The notes: generated by a model not told the origin, from the sequence alone. A DNA stretch of 44,209 nt from Planctomycetota bacterium (GCA_019456225.1 VRUI01000039.1:1-44209); one strand, 5' to 3'. Positions 10,937-41,073 are shown, numbered from the stretch's first letter. A program made the numbers and translations.

Positions 10937-10976
10937 AATATACTCCATATTTTCAATTTCATAATATACTCCATAT
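10925..10976. repeat. Perfect 2 x 26-bp tandem duplication spanning the RBS/start of the 9221..10936 gene
   Basis: tttcaatttcataatatactccatat repeated twice. On the minus strand it duplicates GGAG-N-ATGAAATTGAAA and creates a 9-13 codon upstream ORF. The uORF TGA overlaps the main ATG (ATGA). Confidence 0.85.
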
Positions 10977-24828: not shown

Positions 24829-25536
24829 ATGGAACCAATAAACAGACAAAGCAAAACAAGCATACATTTCAGCATGTCCTATGCATTTGCCATGCCGTGG
24901 TCGCCGGAGAAAAGCAAAACTCTCGACTTCCAGAAGGCTCTGCTCGACAACGGTCTGGAATTTTCGCAGATCAACACGACCGCCAAACAATTCACTCTCT
25001 TCCGCGCAGAGCACTCACCTCTCCGCGTGGTGGTAGAGTCAAACGGCCCGCAGGTCTGCAGCCTCCACGTAGTCGCGCAAAACCCAACCTGCGACCTGGA
25101 CATGTTCACAATGGACGCGTCTGCCGTATGTTCGGCCTTTATGCAGACCTGGCCCGCCGACCAATACCAGGTTGTCCGACGAGCCGCAAAAATCCACCAC
25201 CTGTACAGCTGCAACACCCACGCGTTCGGTTACCTGTGGGAAAAACGACTCGGCCAGTCGCCTGGCGACTTTAAGGCACTAGGCGGCCGCCCCGTCGCCG
25301 GCGGAGGACTAAGACTGGTAATGCCGCCAACAAACATCGAGGGACAACAGCCAAACTCAATCGAGGTAAGAATAGAATCATTCATGCGGGAGACGACAAA
25401 GCTGTTTATAGAGACGGCAATAGTATGGCCAAAGCCAACAATATTACAAAAGGATGAAAAGCTCGATCCCCAGTCGCTGATGCAGCAAACAGAAGACTAC
25501 GCAACAAACGAAGTATGGAATTTTCTAACCCAGTAA
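24829..25536 (+). CDS. Hypothetical protein (235 aa)
   Basis: RBS-like AGGAGAA 9 nt upstream of the ATG. GC-rich coding-like composition. No recognisable motif. Confidence 0.45.
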   Translation: MEPINRQSKTSIHFSMSYAFAMPWSPEKSKTLDFQKALLDNGLEFSQINTTAKQFTLFRAEHSPLRVVVESNGPQVCSLHVVAQNPTCDLDMFTMDASAVCSAFMQTWPADQYQVVRRAAKIHHLYSCNTHAFGYLWEKRLGQSPGDFKALGGRPVAGGGLRLVMPPTNIEGQQPNSIEVRIESFMRETTKLFIETAIVWPKPTILQKDEKLDPQSLMQQTEDYATNEVWNFLTQ

Positions 25537-25564
25537 CAATGCGTTTGGCCCATGATGTTAATTG

Positions 25565-26713
25565 CTATTCAGTCTTTTTAACTTTCAGCAATCCGTTCTC
25601 AAAATCCATCACGATCACACGCTTCTTGAAAAACTTCATCCCAAGCATAATATTACTATTTTTCAGGGGTTCCTCTTTGGACACATCTATCATTACTCGC
25701 ACATCCCTGAAAACTTCCCCTGCAAATTTAAGTTTCTTAACAATGTAGTATTCGCTTTTGGCAAAACCATTACTCCTCCTTACTCGGCAGCTCTTTGGGC
25801 CTTTATGATCAAGCGATTTGGAAAATTCCTTCCAAAAAGAACTCGCTATATGAATTGCAGATCCCGCCCCGGTATCGAATTGCATCCTGTGTTCTTTTCC
25901 GTTGACCGGGATTGTCACAAACAGGATATCATTGTTTTTTCTTGTTTCAACAACCATCGGAAACTCATCCCACAAAGTCTCGTCGTTGGGGTCAAACGAT
26001 TTGACTGAAAATTCCATATACTTTGACGGAGTATCGATAAGGACATAATCGAATTTTTTAAGCAGCTTAATTCCAAGCAGTATATCATATAAAACCTGCG
26101 AGCTCTTTTTATCAGTCCGTTTCTCAAAATGACCATTTCGTACATTGCAACCCGGGTGAACGAAAGTGACATCTCCAAGTTTTAACTGGCATAGATGGCA
26201 AATCCCCACGATACCGCCATCATTGAATCCCTGAGGGTAATAATCCAGCCCGGCATCTTTAACTATTGCATCACCCACCATCAAATTGCCTGCATAGCCG
26301 GTATCTATCTTTACCGGATACTCAGGCCGAACGCTGCCCTTTTTGCCGTTCCAGCAGCTGCCCATAACAACAGGGATAGCCGTTCCGACAAGATTTAGCC
26401 TTACAGGTTTGCCGATATGTATCCTGGAAGTTTTCCAGTCGATCTCAAAATTATTCGGATCCTTGTTGACAACCGTAAACACCGCGTTATCGTCACCCAT
26501 AATCATATTCGGATCGACTGATTCGAGAACAGAATCCGTAACATAATAAACGTTTATTTCACCGTTACGATTGCAAACATAATACGTCCAGGCTAAACGA
26601 AATGCGCAAAAAATCACCACGCCAAGAAGTACGCCGATCTTAGCCTTCAAACTCAATCTTTTCTCGAATATTCCTATTCCCTTAATTATTTTTGAAATCC
26701 GCGGATTAATCAT
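25565..26713 (-). CDS. Membrane-anchored protein with two retropepsin-like aspartic protease signatures (D-T-G)
   Basis: N-terminal TM helix (IGVLLGVVIFCAFRLAWTYYV). 'KIDTGYAGNLMV' and 'MQFDTGAGSAIHI' are both hydrophobic-hydrophobic-D-T-G-A/Y contexts typical of clan AA aspartic peptidases. Confidence 0.5.
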   Translation of the reverse strand: MINPRISKIIKGIGIFEKRLSLKAKIGVLLGVVIFCAFRLAWTYYVCNRNGEINVYYVTDSVLESVDPNMIMGDDNAVFTVVNKDPNNFEIDWKTSRIHIGKPVRLNLVGTAIPVVMGSCWNGKKGSVRPEYPVKIDTGYAGNLMVGDAIVKDAGLDYYPQGFNDGGIVGICHLCQLKLGDVTFVHPGCNVRNGHFEKRTDKKSSQVLYDILLGIKLLKKFDYVLIDTPSKYMEFSVKSFDPNDETLWDEFPMVVETRKNNDILFVTIPVNGKEHRMQFDTGAGSAIHIASSFWKEFSKSLDHKGPKSCRVRRSNGFAKSEYYIVKKLKFAGEVFRDVRVMIDVSKEEPLKNSNIMLGMKFFKKRVIVMDFENGLLKVKKTE

Positions 26714-29700
26714 CTTCTTCCAGGTTTTTATTAATCAAAGAAATCTGCCGGCTCTTTTTCCCTTTCACACTTTTCTTACCTTTCACACTTTTCGCACTTT
26801 TCTTACCTTTAGCACCCGAAGCCCGCGCCTTTTCTTCCAGCGGCTCGTACTTGGCTTTTAGGGCGTCTACGAGTTGGCCGTAGCCGTTTCGCATTGTTTC
26901 GAAACGGTCTACTATCTGCTTGAAGTATGCTATTCTGTCGGCGTCTTCGTGGTGGACGGGGGTTAGCCAGGTCTCCATTGTTTTGAACTGTTCTTCGAGG
27001 ACCGACACCAGCATATGAGTATCCTTTTCGCTCCGCAGCGACATCTCTTTGTCTTCGTGTTCTGCGAGTTCAACGCCCTGTTTTTTGACCGCCTCGATTA
27101 CCGCGGTAATTTTATTTAGAACTTCGCGGCCGATCTTTTTCAGATCATCGGCAGAGGCATCGCTCTTTTGCGCAGCCGGCATCTCAGGCAGCTGCACCTT
27201 AACCGGCGGCATCTCAAATTTAAACTCAGGCAATTCAATTTTAAGCTCGCCTGCGCCTTTTTCGGCCATCGCGGCCATCCCGCCGGATACCGCCTCCTTA
27301 ATAGAATCTAGCCCTGCACCAAACGAATTAAGCTGGCGAATGATCTTACCCACCTTATCCTCATCGTCACCGCCAAGCAGCTGATTGCGTCCGAACCGCT
27401 TTTTGATATCATCCCACCGCGCGAGTTGCTCATCGTCGAGCTTTCCAAGCATCTCGCGGAACTTTAGCATATTAGCCTCTGCGCCGGTAGTAAGCGTCTG
27501 GGAATCCTGCTCATAGCTGGAGAATATCAGCGTCCACAATTCCGCGTCATTCATAACCGGCAGCACCTTGGACGTAATCCGGTTCATATTACGATACGAC
27601 CCCTGCAAGAGGAACGGAGGCTCGGTCCGATACTCATCGGCCTGGCCGGCAGAGGCGATATACTGCGTATTAACCTTAAGGATAACCTCACGCACAACGT
27701 TAAGCTTTTTCATCGTAGAAACATATTCCTTGATCTCGTCGGCAGAATAGTTCCCCTCAAAATCAACCCCATCCTGCTGGCCGGTCTCGGCGATCTTCAT
27801 GATCGCATAAACATCCTTCTGGCTCCGCTGAGCAAGTTTCTCGAGCACAGGATTACAAGTAAGCGAGTTTTCAACATAACTCATAACAAACTCGTTATAG
27901 TTATCGCCGACAATATCACCAATATTATAAATATCCGCCCGGTTGCTAAGCATATCCGGGATACGGAACTTCTCGCCGCTTTCGGTATAAGGGTTACCCG
28001 CCATAACAACACAAACCCGCTTACCCCGAAGATCGTACGTCTGGCTCTTACCATTGTAAACACCCTCAACCCGCCGCTGAGCATCGCAAAGCGAAATAAA
28101 CTTCTGCAAAAATTCCGGGTTTGTATGCTGAATATCGTCAACATAGATCATAACATTATCGCCCATCTCAAAAGCAAGATTAAGCTTATTAACCTCTTCG
28201 CGCGCCGCCGCATTAGGCGCCTCACCCGGATCAAACGAAGTAACCCCACGCCCGATCGCAGGCCCATTGATCTTCATAAATATCAAACCCAGCCGATTCG
28301 CCATATACTCCATAAGAGTAGTCTTACCATAACCCGGCGGCGAGATCAAAAGCAGCAAACCCTGACAGTCCGTCCGCTTGTTATCATCGGCACTGCCGAT
28401 CTGCTTAGCCAAATTGTCCCCAAGCAGCGGCAGATAAACCTTATCGATAAGCTTATTGCGAACAAAAGTACTAAGCACCCGAGGCCGAAACTCATCCAAA
28501 CGAAGCTCGTCAGCATATCGCTCGACAAGATCCTTCTTAAACTTCTGAAAGCCCACAAACTTCGGCACAACAGAACCGGCATGAACCAGCAAACGAGTCA
28601 TAAAGTGACAATAGTTTAATTGCAGCACCCCGCCGTCGATGGACCCATGCGAACCAACAAGCCCGTTAAGAGCCCTTTCAACAGATTCATCGATTACCTC
28701 ACGTCCATCCTTTACACCAAATATCAAAGCAGCCGCCTCATCGCCATACTCAAGCAAAGAAGCATCCGCGTTATCTTCCAGATACGAAACAACCCACTGG
28801 CTGATCAATCGGAACTTGCCCGCCGCGTCCGCCGAAACAGCCCCGACAGAGGCGCCAAACCCTTCAACAAAATTCTTCTGGCGCAAATGCTTCTCAAAAT
28901 CGGATACAACGTCAGCAGCAACGCGGCTCGCGACAAAATCGCCGCCGCCGGCAAGCTCTCTAAACAAATATTCCGCCGCCGCACCGACAAGCGATTCATC
29001 AAACAACCCGCTAGCCTGAACAAAATCCCAGATCAATTCGGCAAGCTCGGCAACATAGCCCGCCTCAACACTGCCAGCCGTAAACAAACGCCCGATATCC
29101 CCTGCCCCGCGAATCCTGGCACCGATAAGCTCCTTAGCCGCCGCGTCCTCAAACAAATCCCAGAACACAACTCCAAGCGCCCGAGCACGCGAAGGATACC
29201 GAAGCAGCCCGATCGCCGAACCAAGCTCAACCAAAGCAGCCAGAATCTTCGCAGCGTCATGGTCATGAACGCCCTTGACATACCCCTCATCGAACCGCGG
29301 CCCCATAAACGCCTGCACCTTCGCGACAACGGCATCAAACTCAAGCCCCAGCAATTCCGCACATCCGTTATCAGCCGCTTCCATCATCATAAACGCCAAA
29401 TACTCGCTGCGATAAACTTCCTTACTCTCGGAAACCAGCTCCAGATCCCAAACATCCCGAGTCGCCAAAAACTCCTCATCGACAATCGGCATAAAGAACC
29501 CGGTCCCCGTCAGATGATAATACATCCCGTCTTCCCGCTGAACGATCGTCCCTTCGAGTGCCTGCTTGTTAACCGAGAACTTATGATTGCCCAGCCGAAT
29601 AATATTATCGCCGTCTTCATACAATGCCAGTCGGTCCTTGAGCTGGCGGATGGAATTTTGCTGCAAAGTCTTAAGCTGCGTCTTAACATCCTCGGCCTTA

Positions 29701-32165
29701 ACCGAATCGCCGATGGCCATCAGCTTATCGATAGTTTCGCGCACCCGCTCGATCATCATATCCGAAGCAAAGTACCCGTTGATCTCGTTAACATCGGTAA
29801 ACCCTTTAACGCGATTACCGATCCCCTTAAGTATCCGCTCGCCCGCCGCCAAAAGCGCCGCCGCCCGCTGATTCCGCTCAGAGACCAGCTGAACCTTCCG
29901 CGACTCGAACGCATTATAAAGCTCCTCACGCTTTTCGGTAAGCTCGACAATAAACTCATCGAAATCGGTAAACCGGCTTTCCAAAGTCTCCAGCTGCACC
30001 ATCGATTTCGTCAGGTACTCAACGCACTTATCCGGCGTATCGCAAATATCCAGGTAGTTTATCACCGACTGATCGATCAATTTTATCTGCGAAGCAAACT
30101 CGGCCTTACCCTCGACGCCTGCAAGGGCCTTGATCTTATTTTTAAGCGTGCTCTTTACCTGGTTAACCTTCGAATACACCAGCGAAATATTATCGATGAT
30201 CGCAACCGTCTCGGTAGCGTCTTCGATCTTCAAATTACTAACGATCTCGGTCAGCATCTCAAGCTCGCCCGCCGTCGCGTCTACCTCTTGCTGCAATTCC
30301 TTACCGGCAGCAACCTTTTCAACCCCATCAATCCGCCCGCCCTGTTCAACAACCTGCTTCATATACGGATCGAGCGATTCGGGCTTTAGCAAAAACTCAA
30401 CGCACAACCCGCTGAGCTTTTCGGTATTTTCGACAACTTCGGTTTCCAGCGATTCGATAAGAGCCTCGTCGGCATACCGAAGATCATGCAAAGAAACAAC
30501 CTGCCCGCGAATCGCCCTTAGCTTGGCTAACTGTCCGACATACTCTCCGATCTCGCCAAGCCGGTTATAATCAACCGAATCGATGATCTGGCGCACCGAC
30601 GTCGAAACTTCCTGTATCTGCTTGCGAGTATTCTCCCTCGTCCGCACGACCTTTTCAAACTCATCGATAGCCGCCGACGCCGCTTCCTTAATATGCACCA
30701 ATGGCTCGGACAATTCAAACGTACCGTCCGTATCAAGCCAGAAATACGAATCGCGAATATCCTCGGCCTTTTTCGTAATATCGATATAAAGATCTGCGTA
30801 CGTCTCTTCCCTGCCAACCAGATTAACAAGCTCCATACACTCGGCCATACACCGCACGATACTCTTATTGCCGATCTTATAAAGCTCGCTGTCATTTTTG
30901 ACCTCGATAGTAAAATCGATCCCATAAAACGGCGTCTTCCAGACCTGGATAACATGGTGCTTCTGGGCCTCGCCGTCGCCGCGGAAGTAAATCAGCGTAC
31001 CGTCTTCAAAGAAAGAATACCCGTTACAAACCACCGGAACAGCCATCTTCTGCTCGATCAGGTTATACGTAAGCAGCACATACACGCCGCTTTGGCGATT
31101 ATAAAAGATATACAGAAAATCCTCACCGTTAGGCGAGCTGATCCGCTTTTCGAAGATCATATCGTGCATATCAGTATCAAACTGCTTCATCTCACCGGTC
31201 TGCAGGTAGTACCCTTTCGGGAACACAAGCCCATGATCTTCCGGCAGAAAAACGCACGCGTCACTGATAGAATCAACCCGGCGCGCCTGCTCAACCTTAC
31301 GGTTATAAACAATGTACCTGAAATTCTTCTCCTGGTAAGGCCGGATCTTAAGCAGCACCAGATTGCCAATTATAGAGTAGTACATCTCCGCGTCGTTAAG
31401 CGTCTGGTCGGCGTCGTCGACGGGCTCGGAGTAAATACCCTCACCGGTTTTCGTATTGTCCTCGATCTTAATGGTAAGGTCCCCGCCGATCGTCTCGACA
31501 AAAACAATATCCTCGATGGACGCATGCGGACTGGTTCCGCTGCGATGCATATCCTGCGTAACCTTTTGCCACTCAAACTCATGCTGCGTCGGAAAAACAT
31601 ATTCATGATCGCTGCGGCTATCGCAATACTCGATGGTATCCTCCCGCATCAGCCACTTAAACGTCTTTATGTCGGTGACACTCTTGCCGATCCTGAAAAC
31701 CATATACAAATACGGTCCGATCATCGCGAATTTAACAAACGTGCTGTGCCTGTAATACCTGTAAAGATTCTTAAAGTCGGCAAGAAACCGCTCGTCATCG
31801 ATCAGCGAAAGCGTATCGGCAACAAACACCCCGTCCTTCCACTTATACACAGAGAACACATCCGAAAGAACAGTCTCGGTGCGAAGCCCGACAAAAACGT
31901 TGTAACCGAAAATGAAATGATGATCCAAAGGAACCATGTCCCGCGGAACGCAGTTATTACCCGTAGAGATACGCTCGCTGGAAACAAGCTTATTCTCGAC
32001 GGCACCAAAGACGTCCTTACGGGCAGCATTAAGCTTATTGAGCCGATCCTGCAAACTCTGACTATGCGTCTGGAGCCGGTTACGAATAACCTCATAGGTC
32101 CCGCCCTCCAAACGAATCTCACCGCCATCAACGCCCTTATCTTTTTTAATATCGTTATCAGCCAT
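26706..32165 (-). CDS. Giant (1819 aa) multidomain protein with an AAA_5 (MoxR/midasin/McrB-like) P-loop ATPase domain and a Lys-rich C-terminal tail
   Basis: Walker A 'LLLISPPGYGKTTLMEYMANRLG'. Walker B 'VMIYVDDIQ'. AAA_5-type sensor region 'VCVVMAGNPYTESGEKFRIPDMLSNRAD'. Long coiled-coil-like central regions. C-terminal KGKKSAKSVKGKKSVKGKKS is encoded by 15/18-nt tandem DNA repeats (about 26757-26810). Confidence 0.75.
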   Translation of the reverse strand: MADNDIKKDKGVDGGEIRLEGGTYEVIRNRLQTHSQSLQDRLNKLNAARKDVFGAVENKLVSSERISTGNNCVPRDMVPLDHHFIFGYNVFVGLRTETVLSDVFSVYKWKDGVFVADTLSLIDDERFLADFKNLYRYYRHSTFVKFAMIGPYLYMVFRIGKSVTDIKTFKWLMREDTIEYCDSRSDHEYVFPTQHEFEWQKVTQDMHRSGTSPHASIEDIVFVETIGGDLTIKIEDNTKTGEGIYSEPVDDADQTLNDAEMYYSIIGNLVLLKIRPYQEKNFRYIVYNRKVEQARRVDSISDACVFLPEDHGLVFPKGYYLQTGEMKQFDTDMHDMIFEKRISSPNGEDFLYIFYNRQSGVYVLLTYNLIEQKMAVPVVCNGYSFFEDGTLIYFRGDGEAQKHHVIQVWKTPFYGIDFTIEVKNDSELYKIGNKSIVRCMAECMELVNLVGREETYADLYIDITKKAEDIRDSYFWLDTDGTFELSEPLVHIKEAASAAIDEFEKVVRTRENTRKQIQEVSTSVRQIIDSVDYNRLGEIGEYVGQLAKLRAIRGQVVSLHDLRYADEALIESLETEVVENTEKLSGLCVEFLLKPESLDPYMKQVVEQGGRIDGVEKVAAGKELQQEVDATAGELEMLTEIVSNLKIEDATETVAIIDNISLVYSKVNQVKSTLKNKIKALAGVEGKAEFASQIKLIDQSVINYLDICDTPDKCVEYLTKSMVQLETLESRFTDFDEFIVELTEKREELYNAFESRKVQLVSERNQRAAALLAAGERILKGIGNRVKGFTDVNEINGYFASDMMIERVRETIDKLMAIGDSVKAEDVKTQLKTLQQNSIRQLKDRLALYEDGDNIIRLGNHKFSVNKQALEGTIVQREDGMYYHLTGTGFFMPIVDEEFLATRDVWDLELVSESKEVYRSEYLAFMMMEAADNGCAELLGLEFDAVVAKVQAFMGPRFDEGYVKGVHDHDAAKILAALVELGSAIGLLRYPSRARALGVVFWDLFEDAAAKELIGARIRGAGDIGRLFTAGSVEAGYVAELAELIWDFVQASGLFDESLVGAAAEYLFRELAGGGDFVASRVAADVVSDFEKHLRQKNFVEGFGASVGAVSADAAGKFRLISQWVVSYLEDNADASLLEYGDEAAALIFGVKDGREVIDESVERALNGLVGSHGSIDGGVLQLNYCHFMTRLLVHAGSVVPKFVGFQKFKKDLVERYADELRLDEFRPRVLSTFVRNKLIDKVYLPLLGDNLAKQIGSADDNKRTDCQGLLLLISPPGYGKTTLMEYMANRLGLIFMKINGPAIGRGVTSFDPGEAPNAAAREEVNKLNLAFEMGDNVMIYVDDIQHTNPEFLQKFISLCDAQRRVEGVYNGKSQTYDLRGKRVCVVMAGNPYTESGEKFRIPDMLSNRADIYNIGDIVGDNYNEFVMSYVENSLTCNPVLEKLAQRSQKDVYAIMKIAETGQQDGVDFEGNYSADEIKEYVSTMKKLNVVREVILKVNTQYIASAGQADEYRTEPPFLLQGSYRNMNRITSKVLPVMNDAELWTLIFSSYEQDSQTLTTGAEANMLKFREMLGKLDDEQLARWDDIKKRFGRNQLLGGDDEDKVGKIIRQLNSFGAGLDSIKEAVSGGMAAMAEKGAGELKIELPEFKFEMPPVKVQLPEMPAAQKSDASADDLKKIGREVLNKITAVIEAVKKQGVELAEHEDKEMSLRSEKDTHMLVSVLEEQFKTMETWLTPVHHEDADRIAYFKQIVDRFETMRNGYGQLVDALKAKYEPLEEKARASGAKGKKSAKSVKGKKSVKGKKSRQISLINKNLEEDD

Positions 32166-32290
32166 CCAACCATTCTCTCAAAAAATATTTAATCAGGGTG
32201 GCACCTTCAAGCGAAGCTTGTGGGTGCTTTCAACGTGCACCCACAAGCCTGCGGCTTGAAGGTGCCACCCAAAATTCATTTTAATTAAAA

Positions 32291-32313
32291 GCCCGAAGCG
32301 CAAGCGCAGGGAT
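32291..32313 (+). promoter_or_regulatory. Conserved intergenic motif, copy 3 of 3
   Basis: AAAAGCCCGAAGCGCAAGCGCAGGGATA. Lies between the giant ATPase gene start and the flotillin gene end, antisense to both. Confidence 0.6.
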
Positions 32314-32442
32314 AAAAACGTCACTCAACCAACAAAACTCACAAATTATCTAAAACGCTTCCTTGTTTTGAACATTTTATTTAGAGCTTTGAATTTGTTT
32401 AGGATTTAGAAATTAGGATTTAGAAATTTTCTTTCCAAAAAA

Positions 32443-32476
32443 AATCCGCGTAATCCGCGTAATCCGCGGATTACGC
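32443..32476. repeat. Left arm of inverted-repeat pair (AATCCGCGTAATCCGCGTAATCCGCGGA, itself containing tandem GCGTAATCC units and an internal palindrome)
   Basis: Its reverse complement occurs at 37686-37713. Adjacent AT-rich DNA (ttagctaatcgcttattgctaattgctaatcgcta) has imperfect inverted similarity to agcaattagccattagct near the right arm. Confidence 0.85.
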
Positions 32477-32522
32477 TTTTGTTTTTGTTTTTAGCTAATC
32501 GCTTATTGCTAATTGCTAATCG

Positions 32523-34532
32523 CTAAACCTTTACATAATCGCTAGCCGGTTCCATAGCGATCCCGCTCTTCTTAACGACGTCGAGCAAACCCTTAAGTAT
32601 GCCCTTTTGGCTGTCGTCGGCATCGCCCATAAGCTTAATGATCAAAGCCGAAACCGAAAGGTTCTTAATATCATCGCTCTTTAGTCCAAACTGCGAAATA
32701 AACTCGCGGATATTCTCTTTCGTTTCTTCGCTGCTGTCACCGATAAGCGTTCCCTTAAGATCGCCAAGCACTTCGCTGTTTTCGACAACCCGGTCAATAG
32801 TCTTGCCCGTAGTGATCGAGTTAACCAGGCGGTTAAAGAAGTTGTTATCGCCGCCGACAATATCGATCCGTGCACTCTTAAGAGCCTCACCGACAATAAT
32901 AGCCTGCTGTTCGGCAATATCCTTATGAACGTTGATCTCGGCAAGCTCGACTTCCAGAGCCTTGTTAAGATTGAGCTTGAACTCTTCATGATCCTTACCG
33001 ACAGCATCGAATATCTTCATCGCTTCGGCCTTATCGCGAATACCGTCAGCCTCTGCGTGATACTTAAGCTCCATAACCTTAGCCTCTGCGGTACCATGTT
33101 TCTCAAGTGCACCGGCCTTAGCCTCTGTAACTTCCGCCTCGGCAACACCGGTGACGGCCTGCTCTTTAACATCCGCAGATGCCAGGGTCTTCTTAGCCTC
33201 TGCGTTCTTAATAGACGCGTCTTCGTTAGCCTTAGCCTCGATAAGCTGCTGATCGGCATAGAACTCCGAAGACTTCTTGGAAGCTTCGGCGGCCTTAATG
33301 TCTTTGACGAGAGCTTCTTCGGCCTTCTCTTCTGCCTTGGTGATAGAAACGCGTTTTTCACGATCGGCACCTGCAAACTGACGAGTGTCCTTGATCTTTT
33401 CCTCTTCTTCGACAACGGTCTTTTCGACCATCACACGTTCGCGGATAGAATCCTGCAGCACTTTCTTCTTATCTTCGACAGCTTTGTCCTTATCGACGCT
33501 TGCGATAGTGACAACCCTGTGACGCTCGACTTCTTCCAGACCGCGATCGCGCTCGACACGCTCTGTCTCGACCGCGTCGGTCCGTTCCTTGTTCTTAGCC
33601 GCCACGATGATCGAACGCATTTTATTTTCTTCCGAAACTGCGATATCTTCATCAGATATAATCCTGGCCTTTTCAGCTTTGAGACGTTGTTCTTCCTCAA
33701 CCTTTTTGGTCTCTGCCTCTTCACGAGCCTGGATAGTGGCGATCTCACGTTTCTGTTTCGCCTCGGCTTCGGCAAGCTGTTTGTTAAGCTCCAGGATAGC
33801 CTCCTGTGCCTCAACATTCTGCTGCGTGATAGTCATATCTTTTTCACGCTCACGCTCGTTAGCCTGTTCATACTGCTCAGCCGTAAGCACGGTAATCTTC
33901 TTGATACCCTCGGCATCGAGAATGTTATCCGGGCTAAGCAGTTTCTTGTCAGTCTGCTCAAGGTAGTCGATCGCCGCGTCCTCAAGCACATAACCGTTAA
34001 GGTCGGTACCGATGATATCGAGGATCTGTTCCTTGAATTTCACGCGAGAAACATAAAGCTCGGCAAAATCAAACCGCTTACCGACACTCTTTAGAGCCTC
34101 GGAAAACTTAGCGTCAAAAAGATCGTAAAGAGCCTGCTCGTTCGATGCACGTACGCAACCCAACGCCTGGGCAACCTTCTTAACGTCATCGACGGTATGA
34201 TTAACCTTTACAAAGAACGCAACCTTGATATCGGCACGAAGATTATCCTTACAGATAAGCCCTTGCGAGCCATGCCGGTCGATCTCGATACGCTTAACCG
34301 AGATATCCATAAACTCGACCTTGTGAAGGATCGGGATAACTATCTTACCCGAAAAATTCACCTTCGTCCCGCCGGCACCGTTACGGATCAGAGCTTCGCC
34401 CTGAGAAACCTTTCGGTAGCACTTGACAAGAAGGGCAAGAACACCCACAGCGCCAAATATAACCGCTCCAATAACGATCTTGCCAACATTACCTTCCAGA
34501 CCTGCCAACATTCCATACATAGTTTCAATCAT
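32523..34532 (-). CDS. Flotillin-like SPFH/band-7 protein (YqiK/FloT type) with long E/K/A-rich coiled-coil C-terminus
   Basis: N-terminal TM helix then SPFH domain (IRNGAGGTKVNFSGKIVIPILHKVEFMDISVKRIEI...). Then about 350 aa of EA-repeat coiled coil. The maximal ORF starts at 34607 (MKDSG...). The ATG at 34532 (MIETMYG...) has a GGAG RBS 9 nt upstream and is the more likely start. Confidence 0.85.
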   Translation of the reverse strand: MIETMYGMLAGLEGNVGKIVIGAVIFGAVGVLALLVKCYRKVSQGEALIRNGAGGTKVNFSGKIVIPILHKVEFMDISVKRIEIDRHGSQGLICKDNLRADIKVAFFVKVNHTVDDVKKVAQALGCVRASNEQALYDLFDAKFSEALKSVGKRFDFAELYVSRVKFKEQILDIIGTDLNGYVLEDAAIDYLEQTDKKLLSPDNILDAEGIKKITVLTAEQYEQANEREREKDMTITQQNVEAQEAILELNKQLAEAEAKQKREIATIQAREEAETKKVEEEQRLKAEKARIISDEDIAVSEENKMRSIIVAAKNKERTDAVETERVERDRGLEEVERHRVVTIASVDKDKAVEDKKKVLQDSIRERVMVEKTVVEEEEKIKDTRQFAGADREKRVSITKAEEKAEEALVKDIKAAEASKKSSEFYADQQLIEAKANEDASIKNAEAKKTLASADVKEQAVTGVAEAEVTEAKAGALEKHGTAEAKVMELKYHAEADGIRDKAEAMKIFDAVGKDHEEFKLNLNKALEVELAEINVHKDIAEQQAIIVGEALKSARIDIVGGDNNFFNRLVNSITTGKTIDRVVENSEVLGDLKGTLIGDSSEETKENIREFISQFGLKSDDIKNLSVSALIIKLMGDADDSQKGILKGLLDVVKKSGIAMEPASDYVKV

Positions 34533-34631
34533 GATCACTTTCTCCAAACAAATATTTTGTAGTTTTTTTCCTGTAAATTCGCTTCGGGCAAGGCCCGAAT
34601 CCTTCATTATACATTAGACAATAATCATTAT

Positions 34632-35324
34632 TCATTTCAAGTCAACCGGTGCAATAGTATACACCCCATTCTCCGCATTTTTACCGATGACCAAGGCTTC
34701 GTCTCCCTTATGGAAAACATTATCACCTTCAGCCACCACGTTAATTAATATCGGAGTGCCTTTCGAGGACATCTCCGCCTGACCCATCTTCTGCGATACT
34801 TGAGTAGTTGTAACCGTGCAAATCCTTCCCATCACAGGACGGGGGGCATTTGCGTCTTTATTTAAAGCTCCAAACATTTTTTTAAACGGCATAATAAACA
34901 CCTTACATACCAATAAACTGACAACCAGGTTACCGGCCAGCAGCGGCAAACTCAAAATCACCGAACCTGTCGGATTGAGCCTGTAGTTAGCGATGACCGA
35001 TATCGCCCACATACACAAAATTAACATGCTGATGAGTATCATGATCGGAACTTCGCCGATATAGAAAAACTCAAGCACTCCGCGGCCAATCCCGTCACCG
35101 CCAACATCACCGTCGACATCGCCGTCAACATCGCCGTCAACGTCAAAATCAAAATCACCGTCAATGTCAATATCAATATCGGCGTCGGCATCGAACTCGA
35201 TATTAAAAAGATCAGCATCGAGCGCACCGAAAATAACCATCAGCCAGTACAGAAACACAACGATCAAGAGAATCGACAACACAAAGTTAGGAGCCGAAAA
35301 CGCCTCATAAACAAGTTCCATCAT
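34632..35324 (-). CDS. NfeD/YqiJ-like membrane protein (flotillin-associated) with acidic D-x repeat tract and C-terminal OB-fold-like domain
   Basis: Two TM regions flank 'DADADIDIDIDGDFDFDVDGDVDGDVDGDVGGDG'. The C-terminal 'GRICTVTTTQV...GTPILINVVAEGDNVFHKGDEALVIGKNAENGVYTIAPV' resembles the NfeD short-form beta-barrel. Sits immediately upstream of flotillin, as in E. coli yqiJ-yqiK. Confidence 0.65.
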   Translation of the reverse strand: MMELVYEAFSAPNFVLSILLIVVFLYWLMVIFGALDADLFNIEFDADADIDIDIDGDFDFDVDGDVDGDVDGDVGGDGIGRGVLEFFYIGEVPIMILISMLILCMWAISVIANYRLNPTGSVILSLPLLAGNLVVSLLVCKVFIMPFKKMFGALNKDANAPRPVMGRICTVTTTQVSQKMGQAEMSSKGTPILINVVAEGDNVFHKGDEALVIGKNAENGVYTIAPVDLK

Positions 35325-35481
35325 AATAATTCCCTTTCCCGTAGTGTGGGCTTCCAGCCCACAACTAAAATAGCATCCGCCGAAGGCGGTTTCCTTATTT
35401 TATTCTTTTAAAAATCTTTACTCTTTTCTTCATGCCCTTCATACTCCTTCATGCCCTTCATGGTAAAAAACACGCTAAAAA

Positions 35482-36147
35482 TCAACCATCGAGCTCAGCA
35501 CGAAGCGCCTCAAGCTCAGCATCGACCTGCATCTGCCGGCTGTGCTCGGCAAGCTCTAAGTCGCTAAGACTGTCGCCGCGAATTTCCTGGTTGATCTCAA
35601 CCTGCGCTTCGCTCTGCAGAACATCTTCTTCCAGCCGGTCAAACGAAACACCTTCCGGCGAAAGCGAAGTTGCTTTATCGAACTTCTCGTCGAATGCCTT
35701 CTGCGCATCTGCTGCACGCTTTCGGGCGACGAGATCATGATGCTTTAGCTTTGCAGCCTTTAGCTGATCCTGAAGCTTTATAATATTAGCCCGAAGCATC
35801 TCATAGCTCTTGCGGCCCTTCTCGACGCCCGGCTGCATCTGGGCGATGCGCTCGGCAAGTTTTACCTTCTCGGTAAGTGCCGCCCTTGCAGCCGCTTCGT
35901 CGCCTGCTTTTAGAGCGGTTTGCGCCTTTACAAGGAGTCCGGCAAGCTGGTTCTCCAAAGCCTCAAGCTCGTTTTCCAGCCGCCGAAAAGTTGCCCCATA
36001 CGACGCTGCGCTTTCGCGGCCTTCGTGTATGGTTTCTTCGAGTTCTTTGATCTTATTGTCCAGCTCGTTCTCGGCTGGCTCGGCCATATCCAAAAGCCAG
36101 TTAATATTGGCCTTGGCGATACGCCGTACTCTATCAAATATAGACAT
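35482..36147 (-). CDS. pspA: PspA/IM30/Vipp1-family protein (paralog 2)
   Basis: N-terminus 'MSIFDRVRRIAKANINWLLDMAEPAENEL' matches the PspA signature ([25 protein letters not shown]...). Coiled-coil remainder. 221 aa. Confidence 0.85.
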   Translation of the reverse strand: MSIFDRVRRIAKANINWLLDMAEPAENELDNKIKELEETIHEGRESAASYGATFRRLENELEALENQLAGLLVKAQTALKAGDEAAARAALTEKVKLAERIAQMQPGVEKGRKSYEMLRANIIKLQDQLKAAKLKHHDLVARKRAADAQKAFDEKFDKATSLSPEGVSFDRLEEDVLQSEAQVEINQEIRGDSLSDLELAEHSRQMQVDAELEALRAELDG

Positions 36148-36172
36148 GATCGAAATCCTTATTATTTAGATG

Positions 36173-36853
36173 TTAAGAAGCGATTTCCTGACGAATTTTC
36201 TTCAGCCGATCCTCGACCTCGGATTCGTGGCTAAGCTCGTTGAGCTTTCGTTCCAGGGTCGGGCTAGCCGAGTAATCGCCGGCCAGGTTGGCCTGCACCT
36301 CCAACTGCGCCTCGGCCTCTTCGACATTCGATTCCAGCCGTGCAACAGCATCCAAAATACTGTCCGTAGACCCCACAGAACCGCTAACGGTCCGCTGGAT
36401 CTTCTGCTGAGTTTTCGCAACTCTGGCTCTTGTTAGGATCTCATCTTTTTTTGCTGCTAGTTCGTCTAGCTGGGTTTGGATTTTTTTGCGGCTGGCTGTT
36501 GCGTGGTCTAGCGAATCTGTTGCGCAGTCGACGTTTTTCTGTGCGATTTCGAGAGTTTTCTCTACTTCGATCTGAGCTTCTATTGACATTTTTGCTGTTT
36601 CTTCGTCGCCTTTTTTTAGTGCCAGTACTGCGCCGTTGCCGAATCGCTCTACTTTTTCGAGGTGCTTTTCGAGGTCGCGTGACGCTTGTTTCAGGGCGAC
36701 GGTGGCCTTGGCTTCTGCGGAGGTTGCGGCCTTTAACTGGGTCTGCATTTCCTCAATAAGCACGGGGAAAAGGGTTTCGGGGTTTTCGGCTCTGTCGAGG
36801 TAAGTCTCTATCCTGCCGAGAGTTATGCGATGTAATCGTTTAAAGATACCCAT
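36173..36853 (-). CDS. pspA: PspA/IM30/Vipp1-family protein (paralog 1, first gene of cluster)
   Basis: 'MGIFKRLHRITLGRIETYLDRAENPETL'. AAGGAG RBS 6 nt upstream. 226 aa coiled-coil protein. Confidence 0.85.
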   Translation of the reverse strand: MGIFKRLHRITLGRIETYLDRAENPETLFPVLIEEMQTQLKAATSAEAKATVALKQASRDLEKHLEKVERFGNGAVLALKKGDEETAKMSIEAQIEVEKTLEIAQKNVDCATDSLDHATASRKKIQTQLDELAAKKDEILTRARVAKTQQKIQRTVSGSVGSTDSILDAVARLESNVEEAEAQLEVQANLAGDYSASPTLERKLNELSHESEVEDRLKKIRQEIAS

Positions 36854-36875
36854 GTTTTACTCCTTCTTGTTAGGC

Positions 36876-36893
36876 TTGCGGAACGTTCCGCAA
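36876..36893. promoter_or_regulatory. Perfect 18-bp palindrome TTGCGGAACGTTCCGCAA in the leader of the first pspA paralog
   Basis: Read directly. Located 23-40 nt upstream of the pspA ATG, between the promoter region and the RBS. Dyad symmetry is typical of a dimeric regulator operator. Confidence 0.4.
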
Positions 36894-37685
36894 TGACCGA
36901 TGAGAACCGATTTATCGGTCTGTTCATCATTGTAGTGCCTCGCTTATTCCTATCCCCATAGACAGGTCGAAACACATCCGGAATACGACTTATCATAACC
37001 TTCAGGTCCGATAAGTCAAGCATAAAATATATTCGGCGTCTACAAATTTTGCCTCAATATTCAGCTATTATACTGACGACTGACGAATCAATTAGTTACA
37101 AAAAATTTACAAATTGAAGAAAAAAAGGGTGTGTTCAGGACATTGTCGACATTTCCCACCTGTGGTTTTGGGCGTTTTTTTTGCATTTTTTTTGACATTA
37201 ATTGACAAAAAACGAGAAAAAAACAGATATTTTGAATTATTTGAAGAAAAATGGCGCGTTTTTGAACGTTTTTTGACCCCTAATTCAGAGGACTAATAAA
37301 TTCTTGATACCCATTATACCTATAAGTAGGTGTAAGATGAACGGTCGGATTTGGGGTTGTTTTGCTTGCGTTTTTTCACCACCAAGACACGAAGGCACTA
37401 AGGGACACGAAGAAATTTCAGGCTTAGATTTGAACTTTGGAACTGAGGCAAAAGACAATAAGAGTAGGGAATCAAATAAATAGATTAGCAGGGTGGGGTC
37501 TGGATTTATTATTGATTAGTTATTATTTATTATTGAGGGGTTTTATTCTTTACATTTTATAGTATTCTGGTAATTTGGAAAACAGCAAACAGCAAACAGC
37601 AAATAGCAGACAGCAGACAGCAATTAGCCATTAGCTATTTTTTGCTGATTGCTGTTGATTGGGAATTTGGAAGTGAAAGAATTTA

Positions 37686-37713
37686 TCCGCGGATTACGCG
37701 GATTACGCGGATT
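37686..37713. repeat. Right arm of inverted-repeat pair (TCCGCGGATTACGCGGATTACGCGGATT)
   Basis: Exact reverse complement of 32443-32470. Lies in a 1.5-kb non-coding, repeat-rich region. Confidence 0.85.
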
Positions 37714-38358
37714 TAAAAACTAAAAAACTGAACCACTAATTAACACCAATTGACACTAATAAAAGAGAAAAAAAGCAGCAGTTGATGTTGTGGGAGTTTG
37801 GAACTAATAATAGTTTGTTGAGGATTTGGGAATTTGTGAATGGGTTCGCATGGCAGAGTTTTAAATGGTCGGGCAGTTTTGCAGAACGATATCTTATCTA
37901 TCTTGCCGAAAAAGGTGTCTGCCCTGTTGTATAATCATATAATGTGGTTTTGGGTTTGTTTTGGACGAGGTTTTTATATTTTTGCGGAGAATTCTCTTTT
38001 ATTTTGCGTCAACTCCGATTAATGTATATTTGTTAGTATATTTAATAACGTTGTGGAAAATGGGAGATTGATAATTGGGTAGTAAATAATACTAAAAAGG
38101 TGTCTGACCCCTAATTTTTGACCTGACCCCTAATTTTCTTTTAATTCTCTTAAAAGTTTTGTTACGACAGGATTTACTGCGATCGCTGATACGGGCCTTC
38201 AATCTGTTGCTTTTATACGTACTGATGGCAAGCCGACCTCAGGCTTAGTCTCTGTTAAAGGGTGCATTGCCAACAAACTCGCTATTGATGAGCAAGCCGT
38301 AGTAGTTGAAGCCAAGACTTTTATACAGTTTGGAACAAATATACCGATAATTGATTTT

Positions 38359-41073
38359 GTGTTTTTCCGTCGATTTTCCGGTGAGCGATCATCGCAAGTT
38401 GCAGCCTATGTTATTGATAACTCTGACGGCAAACTTGATGACAAAACTTTATCCGAGCTTCATCGCCAAGTCTGGCTTCAGGGAACAACTCCGCTACTTT
38501 ATATTGACGGCGCAAGCCAGATAGACATATTGGCTTGTGCGAGAGAACCCGACTTCTGGGATAATAACAAACAAGAGTGCAAATACAATCCCGCAAAAAC
38601 ATTAAAAAAAGATCTATTGACAACTGCCGGTCAAATTTCCGATGAGATGAAAAAGTTCTCAGCGTTAAAACTTGCGGATGGAACTTTTTGGGATGATCCT
38701 GATAATAGAAAATTGGCAAATCATGATAAGGCTGCGCACCAATCATTGATTCAGGCAATTGTCGATGCTGACAAGGATATTGATGGGGAAAATAATCCTG
38801 TCCAACGTCGATTACTTCTGTTGGTGGTACTCATTAAATATCTTGAGGATCGTAAAGTTTTCCCCAAGGCATGGTTTAGCGGATTTCAAAAAGGCGCAAA
38901 AAAATTCCTTGATGTTTTAAAAGATGGTGACCCTAAAGAAGTTTATCGACTGTTGAAGAATCTTGAGTGCAAATTCAATGGAGAAGTATTCGATCTTTCG
39001 CGTTTGGGCAAACAAAAACTCACGAAAAAAGCTCTTAGAACATTTGCAAAATTCGTTGAGGCGAGAACACTGAAGAACCAGCTTTACCTTTGGGATCAAT
39101 ACTCATTTGAACATCTGCCAGTTGAAATCATCAGCCATCTTTATCAGAGATTTATAAAAGATGGGCATGGAGCCGTTTATACACCCCCGTTTTTAGCAGC
39201 ATTATTACTCGATCATACAATGCCTTATAATAAGATGACCGGCAAGGAACGTATTCTGGACCCCGCATGCGGGTCGGGTGTTTTTCTTGTTGGGGCTTTC
39301 AAGAGATTGATTAATTTGTGGAGAAGCAAGAATAACTGGGAAAATCCTACTGTTGAAAAACTTAAAGAAACTCTTGGCAAATGTATTTATGGTGTTGATC
39401 TGGACAAGAATGCGGTTGATTTAACAGCTTTCAGCTTATCTTTGGCTATCTGCGATGCACTCAGACCGAATGTTATCTGGAACAAACTTAGATTTGACTA
39501 TTTACGTGAGTCTAATTTATTTGAGTCAGATTTTTTCGACTTACTCCTTGATTCTCAAAATGGCAATCAAAATATACTTGACACGAAATTTGATATTGTA
39601 ATAGGTAACCCGCCATTTGAATCCGAACTAACTGAGTCTGGAGAGAAAGTTGATCAAGTTGCACACCAGCAAGATAGTAGCCGAGGTTCGTTGCCCGATA
39701 AACAAACGGCGTATCTGTTTCTTGAGCAGGCCTTGACTGTTTTAAAGCCAAAGAGTGGTCGAATCTGCATGATTCAACCTCATGGGCTATTGTACAACAA
39801 TGGAACAGAAGTCTTTCGAACTAGTACATTTCAAAAATGCAAATTAAATACCATTCTTGATTTTATATCTATACGGAAATTATATGATGCAGCAGACCCC
39901 AAAACAATTGCGGTATTTGCTTGTGCTGGCAAACCTACAGCAAATCATTTCATAAACCATTGGACATTTAGACGAACAGTAAGTGTTAAAGAAAGAATTT
40001 GTTTTGAACTTGACCATTATGATTGTCATCGTATTTCACAGAGACAAGCTGAAACCGATCCATATGTGTGGCGAGCAAATCTTCTTGGTGGTGGACGGTT
40101 GGTCGAAATGTCACAACGTATTCGATCCATGCGTACGTTAGCCAAATACCTTGAGAACAAAAAAGACTGGGATTACGGTGAAGGTTTTATTGCAGCAAAA
40201 ACAGGGAAAAGAGAACCAGCTCCATTTCTAACAGGCAAACCGTTGTTGCCAACAAAAGCCTTTACAGAATCAGGCATTGATGAAAACCAAATTAGTACGG
40301 TAACAGATACACATTTTCGTTCTGCGTATACAGAAGATCGTTACAGTGCGCCAATTATTTTAATTAAGGAGTTAGATTCTCTTCCGATTGCTTTTCGGGA
40401 AGAAGGGTTTCTTGCATACCGTGACAAAATAGTTGGAATCCATGCATTACAAGCTCCTGTTGCTGAACTTCGCAGGCTTTATGAAATACTTCATGTAAAT
40501 CATAACACTTATCGATTTTGTTGCACGCTGAATGGTTCACAATCGCTGGTTAGCAAGGCAACTGCGATTCTTAAGCAAGACATTGATTTATTACCTTACC
40601 CCAAAGATCACAAAGACCTTCAGTTTTCTTTTTGGGAGCGTGCACTTTGTGAAGATGTACTTGATTATATAGCTGATTATGTTCGACTAGGTCAAAATTC
40701 AGAGTTGTTATGCAAGAAGGCTGATAGCAGTAATTTGAAGGAATATTCAAGGATATTTTGCCGAATGCTCGGTAGTATTTATGACAATCTAAAAGCGAGT
40801 ACTCCGATTTCTTGGAATAACTTGATATGTCAGCCATTTTATTTTGGCGATTCCCCGGAACTTACGTGGCTTGACAGTAGTGCGGAGGCTAATCTTGAAA
40901 AGCTAATTTATGATGAAAGCCATGAATGCCTGCGAACTGTAAGAGTTGTTCGTTTGTACGATAAAAATGTTTTATTGATCATTAAGCCTAACAGGTTACG
41001 TTACTGGATTCGCTCGACAGCGATTCGCGATGCAGACGACACACTTACAGAGTTATATGATCAGGGTTATTAA
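38359..41073 (+). CDS. MmeI-like type IIG restriction-modification protein: gamma-class N6-adenine DNA methyltransferase with N-terminal nuclease-like domain and C-terminal target-recognition region
   Basis: MTase motif I 'ILDPACGSGVFLVGA'. Motif IV 'IVIGNPPFES'. About 300-aa N-terminal domain and about 350-aa C-terminal region give MmeI-like domain order and size (904 aa). Start is GTG; the true start is uncertain within a few codons. Confidence 0.8.
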   Translation: MFFRRFSGERSSQVAAYVIDNSDGKLDDKTLSELHRQVWLQGTTPLLYIDGASQIDILACAREPDFWDNNKQECKYNPAKTLKKDLLTTAGQISDEMKKFSALKLADGTFWDDPDNRKLANHDKAAHQSLIQAIVDADKDIDGENNPVQRRLLLLVVLIKYLEDRKVFPKAWFSGFQKGAKKFLDVLKDGDPKEVYRLLKNLECKFNGEVFDLSRLGKQKLTKKALRTFAKFVEARTLKNQLYLWDQYSFEHLPVEIISHLYQRFIKDGHGAVYTPPFLAALLLDHTMPYNKMTGKERILDPACGSGVFLVGAFKRLINLWRSKNNWENPTVEKLKETLGKCIYGVDLDKNAVDLTAFSLSLAICDALRPNVIWNKLRFDYLRESNLFESDFFDLLLDSQNGNQNILDTKFDIVIGNPPFESELTESGEKVDQVAHQQDSSRGSLPDKQTAYLFLEQALTVLKPKSGRICMIQPHGLLYNNGTEVFRTSTFQKCKLNTILDFISIRKLYDAADPKTIAVFACAGKPTANHFINHWTFRRTVSVKERICFELDHYDCHRISQRQAETDPYVWRANLLGGGRLVEMSQRIRSMRTLAKYLENKKDWDYGEGFIAAKTGKREPAPFLTGKPLLPTKAFTESGIDENQISTVTDTHFRSAYTEDRYSAPIILIKELDSLPIAFREEGFLAYRDKIVGIHALQAPVAELRRLYEILHVNHNTYRFCCTLNGSQSLVSKATAILKQDIDLLPYPKDHKDLQFSFWERALCEDVLDYIADYVRLGQNSELLCKKADSSNLKEYSRIFCRMLGSIYDNLKASTPISWNNLICQPFYFGDSPELTWLDSSAEANLEKLIYDESHECLRTVRVVRLYDKNVLLIIKPNRLRYWIRSTAIRDADDTLTELYDQGY

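Follow-up and report, generated by a model that had tools for sequence, protein, structure and literature searches.

A YqiJ–flotillin–giant ATPase gene module and its PspA-bearing variant in a Planctomycetota bacterium

A cluster of co-oriented genes in a 44,209-nucleotide stretch of DNA from a Planctomycetota bacterium (GCA_019456225.1, VRUI01000039.1:1-44209; the whole stretch is referred to below as the window) encodes two PspA/IM30 paralogues, a YqiJ-type membrane protein, a YqiK-type flotillin and a giant AAA+ ATPase. The cluster is a genuine, widely conserved bacterial gene module. Its conserved unit is YqiJ–flotillin–ATPase, and PspA is a repeated, lineage-specific addition, as follows from the counts of a neighbourhood survey and from Proteus and Vibrio loci that carry the unit with no PspA gene nearby. 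An earlier interpretation made from the sequence alone (the sequence-only reading) had seen here a candidate membrane-remodelling module in which the ATPase acts on a PspA/flotillin scaffold. That interpretation is partly supported: a conserved module does recur near flotillin, but the focus on PspA, the role given to a lysine-rich tail and the view of the ATPase as a component without a name did not hold up.

The module bears on the build-up and disassembly of flotillin scaffolds and of PspA/ESCRT-III-like polymers in bacteria. According to a 2025 review, no Vps4-like ATPase is known in bacteria. The ATPase family described here is large, carries the wrong label 'DNA repair ATPase' and has its gene directly after flotillin in nearly all cases, which makes it an obvious candidate for a factor in scaffold dynamics; it is present in tractable organisms, Proteus mirabilis and Vibrio. 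The value of the window itself is limited, as it adds a Phycisphaerae variant to a published operon type.

Gene content of the cluster

Calling of open reading frames (ORFs) confirmed five co-oriented minus-strand genes at exactly the positions proposed in the sequence-only reading. A sixth co-oriented gene, for an aspartic protease, had been overlooked. The genes are, in the order of transcription:

36173–36853, minus strand: PspA paralogue 1, 226 amino acids (aa) (PF04012, E = 2.9e-24; TIGR02977, E = 5.9e-26)
35482–36147, minus strand: PspA paralogue 2, 221 aa (PF04012, E = 7.7e-30)
34632–35324, minus strand: YqiJ/YuaF-type (NfeD2-like) protein with multiple transmembrane segments, 230 aa, with an acidic, D-rich loop
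32523–34607, minus strand: YqiK-type flotillin (SPFH2), 694 aa
26706–32165, minus strand: giant DUF3686-family AAA+ ATPase, 1819 aa
25565–26713, minus strand: membrane-anchored clan-AA (retropepsin-like) aspartic protease, 382 aa

The YqiJ gene lies immediately upstream of the flotillin gene on the same strand, with a spacer of 24 bp (34632 versus 34607), and the flotillin and ATPase genes are separated by a gap of 357 bp (32166–32522).

The predicted pair of PspA/IM30 paralogues is borne out by the PF04012 matches; the two share 27% identity (E = 1e-12, BLASTP of one against the other). The identities of the YqiJ-type protein and the flotillin had to be established by profile comparison because Pfam is weak or silent on these copies, and the profiles were built from orthologues whose genes adjoin homologues of the giant ATPase gene. 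The 230-aa protein gives a weak Pfam match to YqiJ_N (E = 2.8e-3, under the cut-off), and among 18 orthologues 6 match YqiJ_N and one matches NfeD. The profile of these 18 orthologues aligns with E. coli YqiJ at 95.8% probability (hhalign, E = 6.6e-9), which confirms the YqiJ/NfeD-like membrane protein of the sequence-only reading.

The 694-aa protein, searched alone, has no Pfam, NCBIfam or PDB sequence match, and Band_7 is matched by 2 of 20 orthologues. The 20-orthologue profile nevertheless aligns with the E. coli YqiK flotillin at 100% probability (hhalign, E = 7e-41, 31% identity over 393 columns), so that the flotillin assignment stands; against the PDB, a profile search gives only a weak match to the QmcA coiled coil. 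The protein consists of an N-terminal transmembrane segment, the SPFH domain, a long helical region rich in E, K and A, and a conserved C-terminal domain.

Conservation of the gene neighbourhood

The surroundings of the ATPase gene were surveyed by scanning one genome per GTDB species, calling ORFs and searching them by jackhmmer with the window proteins. The 80 loci analyzed are the best 80 among no fewer than 568 confirmed matches; each shares 47% identity or more with the query, and together they span Planctomycetota, Bacteroidota, Verrucomicrobiota, Desulfobacterota, Clostridia, Kiritimatiellota and Omnitrophota. In 63 of the 66 loci with enough flank, a flotillin homologue is encoded directly upstream of the ATPase gene and in the same orientation, and a YqiJ homologue is found upstream in 56 of 62 such loci. 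The gap between flotillin and ATPase has a median of 128 bp, and many gaps are shorter than 50 bp. The ATPase family thus recurs beside flotillin across phyla, and the possibility raised together with the sequence-only reading, that the giant protein belongs to a family that never co-occurs with SPFH or PspA genes, is contradicted by these counts.

PspA had been proposed, with flotillin, as a partner of the ATPase. Only 21 of the 61 loci with enough flank have a PspA gene at any position within about 10 kb, and the conserved partner is instead the YqiJ–flotillin pair. The PspA-linked loci are mostly from Bacteroidota, and the rest are from Phycisphaerae, Kiritimatiellota and Omnitrophota. In Bacteroidota, the gene before PspA encodes CesT_Tir_1 (PF22550, E = 1e-56), and a helix-turn-helix (HTH) gene is divergently oriented. 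In the surveyed Clostridia, Desulfobacterota, Pirellulales-type loci and Verrucomicrobiota, PspA is absent near the ATPase gene, with one verrucomicrobial exception in which it lies on the opposite strand.

Close Phycisphaerae relatives of the window show the order PspA–PspA–YqiJ–(small Band_7)–flotillin–ATPase–PspA. In one of them (survey locus L082, 4135–15044; ATPase 65% identical), an extra 184-aa Band_7 protein is encoded and a third PspA gene begins 12 nt after the ATPase gene; in three others (L001, L003 and L066), PspA lies 27–31 nt downstream. Because PspA follows the ATPase by only 12–31 nt, the ATPase gene of the closest relatives has scaffold genes on both sides. In the window, the aspartic protease gene sits where these relatives carry the downstream PspA.

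To lessen the bias towards close relatives, a distant search was started from a homologue that shares 31% identity with the window protein in the N-terminal domain, and loci from two distant organisms, both on the Gammaproteobacteria branch, were checked. YqiJ and flotillin homologues precede the ATPase both in Proteus mirabilis (hidden Markov model (HMM) search, E = 7e-37 and 5e-226, respectively) and in Vibrio (E = 2e-12 and 2e-62). No PspA gene occurs within 8 kb of the ATPase in the Proteus mirabilis (L084, L085) or Vibrio sp. (L086) loci. The Proteus protein cluster holds 357 member sequences. A divergent LemA gene and a gene for a 392-aa protein lie just upstream of the core in Proteus, and in Vibrio the core is followed by genes for TelA and a ClpX-like protein.

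Domain architecture of the giant ATPase

No solved structure exists for any member of the giant ATPase family. Its architecture was therefore delineated from Pfam searches, a conservation profile across 78 sequences from several phyla, and AlphaFold 2 (AF2) models built on 51-sequence alignments, with mean predicted local distance difference test (pLDDT) values of 84.5 and 83.6. The following regions were distinguished:

30936–31991, minus strand: ATPase residues 59–410, predicted β-propeller (DUF3686 core), all-β in the AF2 model with mean pLDDT 84.5
29586–30887, minus strand: ATPase residues 427–860, spectrin-repeat-like helical bundles including DUF7902 (residues 597–679)
28455–29585, minus strand: ATPase residues 861–1237, small β element and helical linker domain (AF2 model of residues 860–1640)
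27366–28454, minus strand: ATPase residues 1238–1600, single MoxR-like AAA+ module
26706–27308, minus strand: ATPase residues 1620–1819, lineage-specific tail ending in the lysine-rich KGKKSAKSVKGKKSVKGKKS

The dominant Pfam match is DUF3686 (PF12458), covering residues 38–475 with E = 1e-182, followed by DUF7902 (PF25472, E = 9.5e-25). In the AF2 model, an N-terminal helix precedes the β domain. The best Foldseek matches of residues 59–410 in the PDB are β-propellers (Elp1, CyRPA, prolyl oligopeptidase and WD proteins; E from 4e-6 to 1e-3), at low template modelling (TM) scores of about 0.2. Residues 1000–1200 are poorly conserved in the 78-sequence profile. By inspection, the sequence has neither a transmembrane segment nor a signal peptide.

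The motor of the MoxR/midasin type that had been proposed is supported by a MoxR-like AAA+ fold and conserved catalytic motifs, even though the Pfam matches to AAA and AAA_5 at residues 1271–1395 are weak (27 and 24 bits). The motifs GYGKTT, VMAGNP and IPDMLSNRAD are present as they had been quoted, as is the lysine-rich tail. The Walker A motif (GYGKTT, residues 1278–1283), the Walker B aspartates (1343–1344), sensor-1 (N1391) and the following arginine (R1409) are at least 90% conserved in the 78 sequences, and the AAA+ module is, as judged from these motifs, catalytically intact. Its closest structural neighbours are CbbQ and NorQ. Of the domains considered when the protein was first read, the β-propeller was found and AAA_5 was matched weakly; a von Willebrand domain was not found in the protein.

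The C-terminal tail differs from the rest of the protein. Identity drops to 0.04–0.19 in the multi-phylum alignment, and the last ~200 residues are not conserved. Planctomycetota homologues have a basic tail (a median of 11 K+R in the last 50 residues of 116 homologues), the orthologues of ~1620–1660 aa from Bacteroidota, Clostridia and Verrucomicrobiota lack the lysine-rich tail, and in a Desulfobacterales homologue (L008, 14000–15682) C-terminal ankyrin repeats (Ank_2, E = 2e-21) take its place. The C-terminus thus appears, from these comparisons, to be a swappable targeting module. The tail had been suggested to anchor the protein to lipid or DNA; being limited to Planctomycetota-like lineages and absent from the orthologues of other phyla, it cannot be central to the mechanism.

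More than 5300 homologues were found at E ≤ 1e-10. A search with the N-terminal domain yielded 726 representatives of 50%-identity clusters; nearly all full-length members have a length of 1600–1930 aa. The nearest relatives, 65–87% identical, are from Anaerohalosphaera, Sedimentisphaerales and other Phycisphaerae. The family is labelled 'DNA repair ATPase' by NCBI and 'MoxR-like ATPase' by JGI.

Intergenic regions of the operon

The intergenic regions hold the following elements:

36992–37019, minus strand: promoter-like site TTGACT-16-TATGAT, ~140 nt upstream of PspA-1, matching the consensus at 10 of 12 positions
35377–35389, minus strand: short GC hairpin whose tail is T-rich, located in the spacer of 157 bp that follows PspA-2, a weak hit of the terminator-like scan
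32448–32476 (inverted repeat 32438–32486), minus strand: intrinsic-terminator-like hairpin with a 12-bp stem that includes eight GC pairs, followed by eight U
32175–32291, minus strand: long nested inverted repeat of ~117 nt, with perfect 17-nt outer arms around a nested hairpin
26694–26709, 32459–32474 and 37682–37697: copies of GTAATCCGCGGATTAC, at the ATPase stop/protease start, just after flotillin and upstream of the operon, respectively

The site upstream of PspA-1 is a consensus match only, in a phylum whose promoters are poorly known; an AAGGAG ribosome-binding site is located just before the PspA-1 ATG. Promoter-like matches are overall not above chance (22 found versus 16.7 ± 4.3 expected), and two weak ones fall within the gap between flotillin and ATPase.

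This gap is highly structured. The terminator-like hairpin lies 47 nt past the flotillin stop codon, and the nested inverted repeat lies immediately upstream of the ATPase start codon, ending 10 nt before the ribosome-binding region. Apart from these two, the 44-kb window has no long (≥18 nt) close inverted repeat, and the whole 357 bp folds far better than shuffled sequence (z = −9.8). No Rfam family was matched in 25000–38500, which includes the gap. The caution in the sequence-only reading that the ATPase gene may be separately transcribed is justified by the 12-bp stem and the eight U after flotillin.

The palindrome core GTAATCCGCGGATTAC occurs in three copies at up to two mismatches, with none expected by chance, and may be a repetitive extragenic palindromic (REP)-like intergenic element that marks unit boundaries. 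Two of the copies are flanked by short GCTAAT/ATTAGC-type repeats.

In long-gap loci of the survey, a conserved gene between flotillin and ATPase was sought and rejected, because the inserts are heterogeneous and form no conserved family. Examples are L053 (6802–7251), L029 (9344–9901), L033 (9524–9946), L048 (9368–9544) and L037 (5662–6186); by eye, candidate identities among the inserts include IS200/RAYT-type transposases, DUF559-like endonucleases and a GIY-YIG protein. This site looks like a hotspot for insertions.

The aspartic protease and the rest of the window

The start of the protease gene overlaps the ATPase stop by 8 nt. The protein matches PF13975 (E = 1.3e-8), PF13650, TIGR02281 and TIGR03698, and has an N-terminal transmembrane segment and two clan-AA signatures (residues 131–161 and 267–364); from this arrangement, it may be a pseudo-dimeric retropepsin. 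None of the 80 related loci yielded the protease, which is for this reason regarded as a local addition. As candidate members of the module, the protease and its 235-aa and 542-aa neighbours were all rejected, being absent from the 80 related loci.

An HMM built from 18 CesT_Tir_1 neighbours found no match at E ≤ 10 in the six-frame ORFs of the window, and neither a PLD gene nor a divergent HTH regulator is present in the operon of the window. PADLOC gave no defence-system match for the cluster, only borderline coiled-coil/P-loop noise at E ~1e-3. Upstream of the operon, 36854–38358 is a 1.5-kb region of low GC content (~37–42%) with no ORF above 66 aa; it separates the operon from a Type IIG restriction-modification enzyme (38359–41073, plus strand, 904 aa, Eco57I/MmeI-like; PADLOC REase_MTase_IIG, E = 1.4e-44). 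Elsewhere, the window encodes sulfatases, EF-G, ClpX and MscS, in keeping with a Phycisphaerae-type planctomycete, to which the nearest relatives of the ATPase assign the window. No Pfam match was obtained at the thresholds used for the ORFs at 22280–23908 (minus), 24829–25536 (plus), 18106–20382 (plus), 7303–8760 (plus), 9221–10948 (minus) and 41076–41789 (plus). Two ORFs antisense to the ATPase gene (28620–30389, plus, 589 aa; 30693–32192, plus, 499 aa) are most likely by-products of skewed codon composition and not genes. The GC skew is about −0.2 to −0.3 across 24–36 kb.

A proposed role for the ATPase

We favour, at slightly better than an even chance, the reading that the ATPase remodels a flotillin/YqiJ membrane scaffold at the cytoplasmic face of the inner membrane; all components face the cytoplasm or the inner membrane. 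The core of the system consists of YqiJ, the YqiK-type flotillin and the giant cytoplasmic DUF3686 ATPase, to which the Phycisphaerae genome studied here has added two PspA (ESCRT-III-like) genes in front and the coupled, membrane-anchored aspartic protease behind. Because it has one catalytically intact MoxR-like AAA+ module, the ATPase presumably forms a ring. This module sits at the end of a long helical-bundle arm that starts with the β-propeller. We infer that the propeller and the arm dock on the flotillin/YqiJ assembly and that ATP hydrolysis would remodel it: the SPFH oligomer, or the clients that it holds, would be loaded, reshaped or taken apart. Where PspA is co-encoded, PspA polymers might be brought to the same patch of membrane or freed from it. 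The predicted hairpins after PspA-2 and flotillin suggest graded expression, with abundant scaffold and little ATPase.

A bolder form of this proposal is tentative and, in our judgement, less probable than not by a clear measure: the ATPase could use ATP to remodel the membrane scaffolds of bacteria, as a MoxR-clade ring from which six propeller-tipped arms extend. It would assemble or dismantle flotillin cages and, in lineages with co-encoded PspA, pass membrane patches on to ESCRT-III-like polymers. It would then be a convergent functional analogue of Vps4, based on a different AAA+ clade and distributed from Planctomycetota to Proteus and Vibrio.

Several observations weigh against remodelling of the flotillin/YqiJ scaffold. 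MoxR ATPases normally work with a VWA/MIDAS partner. No VWA/MIDAS match was found in the ATPase, the neighbouring ORFs or the window ORFs of at least 180 aa that were scanned, and none of the recurrent neighbour clusters of related loci, part of which were Pfam-scanned, looked VWA-like. The terminator-like hairpin that separates flotillin from the ATPase in this genome is strong. Elsewhere, the junction of the two genes holds heterogeneous inserts of 0.6–2.4 kb, and since it tolerates such unrelated sequence, tight co-transcription of flotillin and ATPase is not required. The survey, made up of the best matches, is biased towards relatives of the query, and the distant loci come from just two organisms. 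A literature search for DUF3686, PF12458, or 'DNA repair ATPase' together with flotillin found no papers.

Among the alternatives, the one that survives best narrows the sequence-only reading to PspA: the main task of the ATPase would be to take PspA polymers apart or exert force on them, as a functional analogue of Vps4, with flotillin as a bystander scaffold. Two PspA genes head the operon of the window, and close relatives carry up to three, one of them in the position right behind the ATPase gene. The position of PspA, moreover, differs between Bacteroidota (upstream, with CesT/Tir) and Phycisphaerae (upstream and downstream), suggesting repeated recruitment, and according to the 2025 review bacteria appear to lack a Vps4-like ATPase, which leaves such a role unfilled. 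The survey nevertheless makes this alternative the less parsimonious one and, in our view, unlikely: PspA accompanies the ATPase in about a third of the loci and is missing from the Proteus and Vibrio loci, almost every locus has flotillin and YqiJ, and Pfam detects no MIT domain in the ATPase.

The ATPase might instead chaperone a third-party client in the MoxR manner, for instance a membrane protein complex that is assembled inside a flotillin microdomain, with flotillin and YqiJ as a platform and not a substrate. CbbQ and NorQ, nearest to it in structure, act as chaperones in the maturation or activation of other enzymes, the β-propeller and the ankyrin repeats of one homologue are generic protein-binding modules, and a chaperone-like role is favoured by Ravi et al. 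2024 (PMC11237479). Yet beyond the scaffold proteins, CesT/Tir, the HTH regulator and an occasional PLD gene, no recurrent client gene lies nearby, and there is no VWA adaptor; we consider this alternative quite unlikely.

It is improbable that in this genome the ATPase and protease genes form a separate transcription unit functionally uncoupled from the four upstream genes, their adjacency being an inherited relic. The U8-tailed hairpin after flotillin, the second long hairpin before the ATPase start codon and the two weak promoter-like sites in the gap would fit such a split, but separate or attenuated transcription need not mean separate function, orientation and order are kept in nearly all surveyed loci with many short gaps, and the promoter-like matches do not exceed the chance expectation. 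Finally, we regard as highly improbable that the database name is right and that the protein is a DNA-repair ATPase with a DNA-binding lysine-rich tail, its adjacency to membrane genes being incidental: to the labels of NCBI and Pfam ('ATPase involved in DNA repair'), the weak RuvB P-loop matches and the basic tail can be opposed that the RuvB matches cover only the Walker A region (21 bits versus a cut-off of 282), that Pfam finds no nuclease, helicase or DNA-binding domain in the ATPase, that the tail is lineage-specific, that the synteny with flotillin and YqiJ holds across phyla and that no paper supporting the name was found. Nothing in this analysis supports the name 'DNA repair ATPase'.

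Comparison with known systems

The ATPase was held in the sequence-only reading to be no standard, nameable component; it had, however, already been described together with its operon. Ravi et al. 2024 (mSystems 9:e00847-23, PMC11237479, section 19) reported operons combining a CesT/Tir–PspA pair, a YqiJ/YuaF protein with three transmembrane segments that is sometimes accompanied by PLD, a band-7/flotillin protein and a β-propeller–coiled-coil–AAA+ ATPase, noted abbreviated operons without PspA, and favoured a chaperone-like function in putting together membrane-linked complexes. Their description names a 'Betapropeller+Coiled-coil+AAA-ATPase', and their Table S3 has an entry for Dokdonia donghaensis (ANH61663.1). 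The Flavobacteriia loci recovered here reproduce the gene order of that entry along with CesT_Tir_1 and the divergent HTH regulator, and the PLD neighbour was recovered as well. The window shares with the published operons the four protein types, the one-strand order YqiJ, flotillin, ATPase and the ATPase architecture. It differs in having two tandem PspA genes and a translationally coupled clan-AA protease, and in lacking CesT/Tir, PLD and the divergent HTH gene. Membership in the wider class holds despite the missing CesT/Tir because abbreviated operons without the CesT/Tir–PspA pair have been published. Thus, the window is a Phycisphaerae variant of an already published operon type, and its novelty is modest.

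The YqiJ–flotillin pair corresponds to the NfeD2–SPFH2 operons yqiJ–yqiK of E. coli and yuaF–floT of B. subtilis (Hinderhofer et al. 2009, PMC2636767). As in these operons, an NfeD-like gene lies immediately upstream of the flotillin gene, and both proteins are homologous by profile comparison. In contrast, the E. coli locus has no ATPase gene after yqiK, and the flotillin of the window is longer than YqiK (694 versus 553 aa), with a conserved C-terminal domain outside the YqiK alignment.

With the MoxR family (CbbQ, NorQ, RavA) and midasin, the ATPase shares the MoxR-clade AAA+ fold with intact Walker A and B motifs, sensor-1 and arginine. It is far larger than MoxR proteins (1819 versus ~270–500 aa), with a propeller and a long helical arm, it has no VWA/MIDAS partner, and its gene context consists of membrane scaffolds and not of a metalloenzyme. 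The cluster also departs from the canonical Psp system (PspF–PspABC): PspF, PspB and PspC were not found among the window ORFs scanned, a set that included part of the ORFs below 180 aa outside the cluster. The archaeal and eukaryotic Vps4/ESCRT-III systems resemble the cluster in that an AAA+ ATPase gene lies beside ESCRT-III-superfamily (here, PspA) genes, and the ATPase could work like Vps4. It is no relative of Vps4: an MIT domain is missing, its AAA+ clade is a different one, and its association with PspA is facultative only.

SPFH proteins pair with AAA+ machines or proteases in HflK/C–FtsH, in prohibitin with the m-AAA protease and in stomatin with the NfeD protease. The ATPase described here differs from the HflK/C–FtsH arrangement in being cytoplasmic and in having neither a protease domain nor a transmembrane anchor, and a separate clan-AA protease accompanies it only in this genome. 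The theme shared by these systems and the cluster is an SPFH scaffold combined with an AAA+ machine and a protease.

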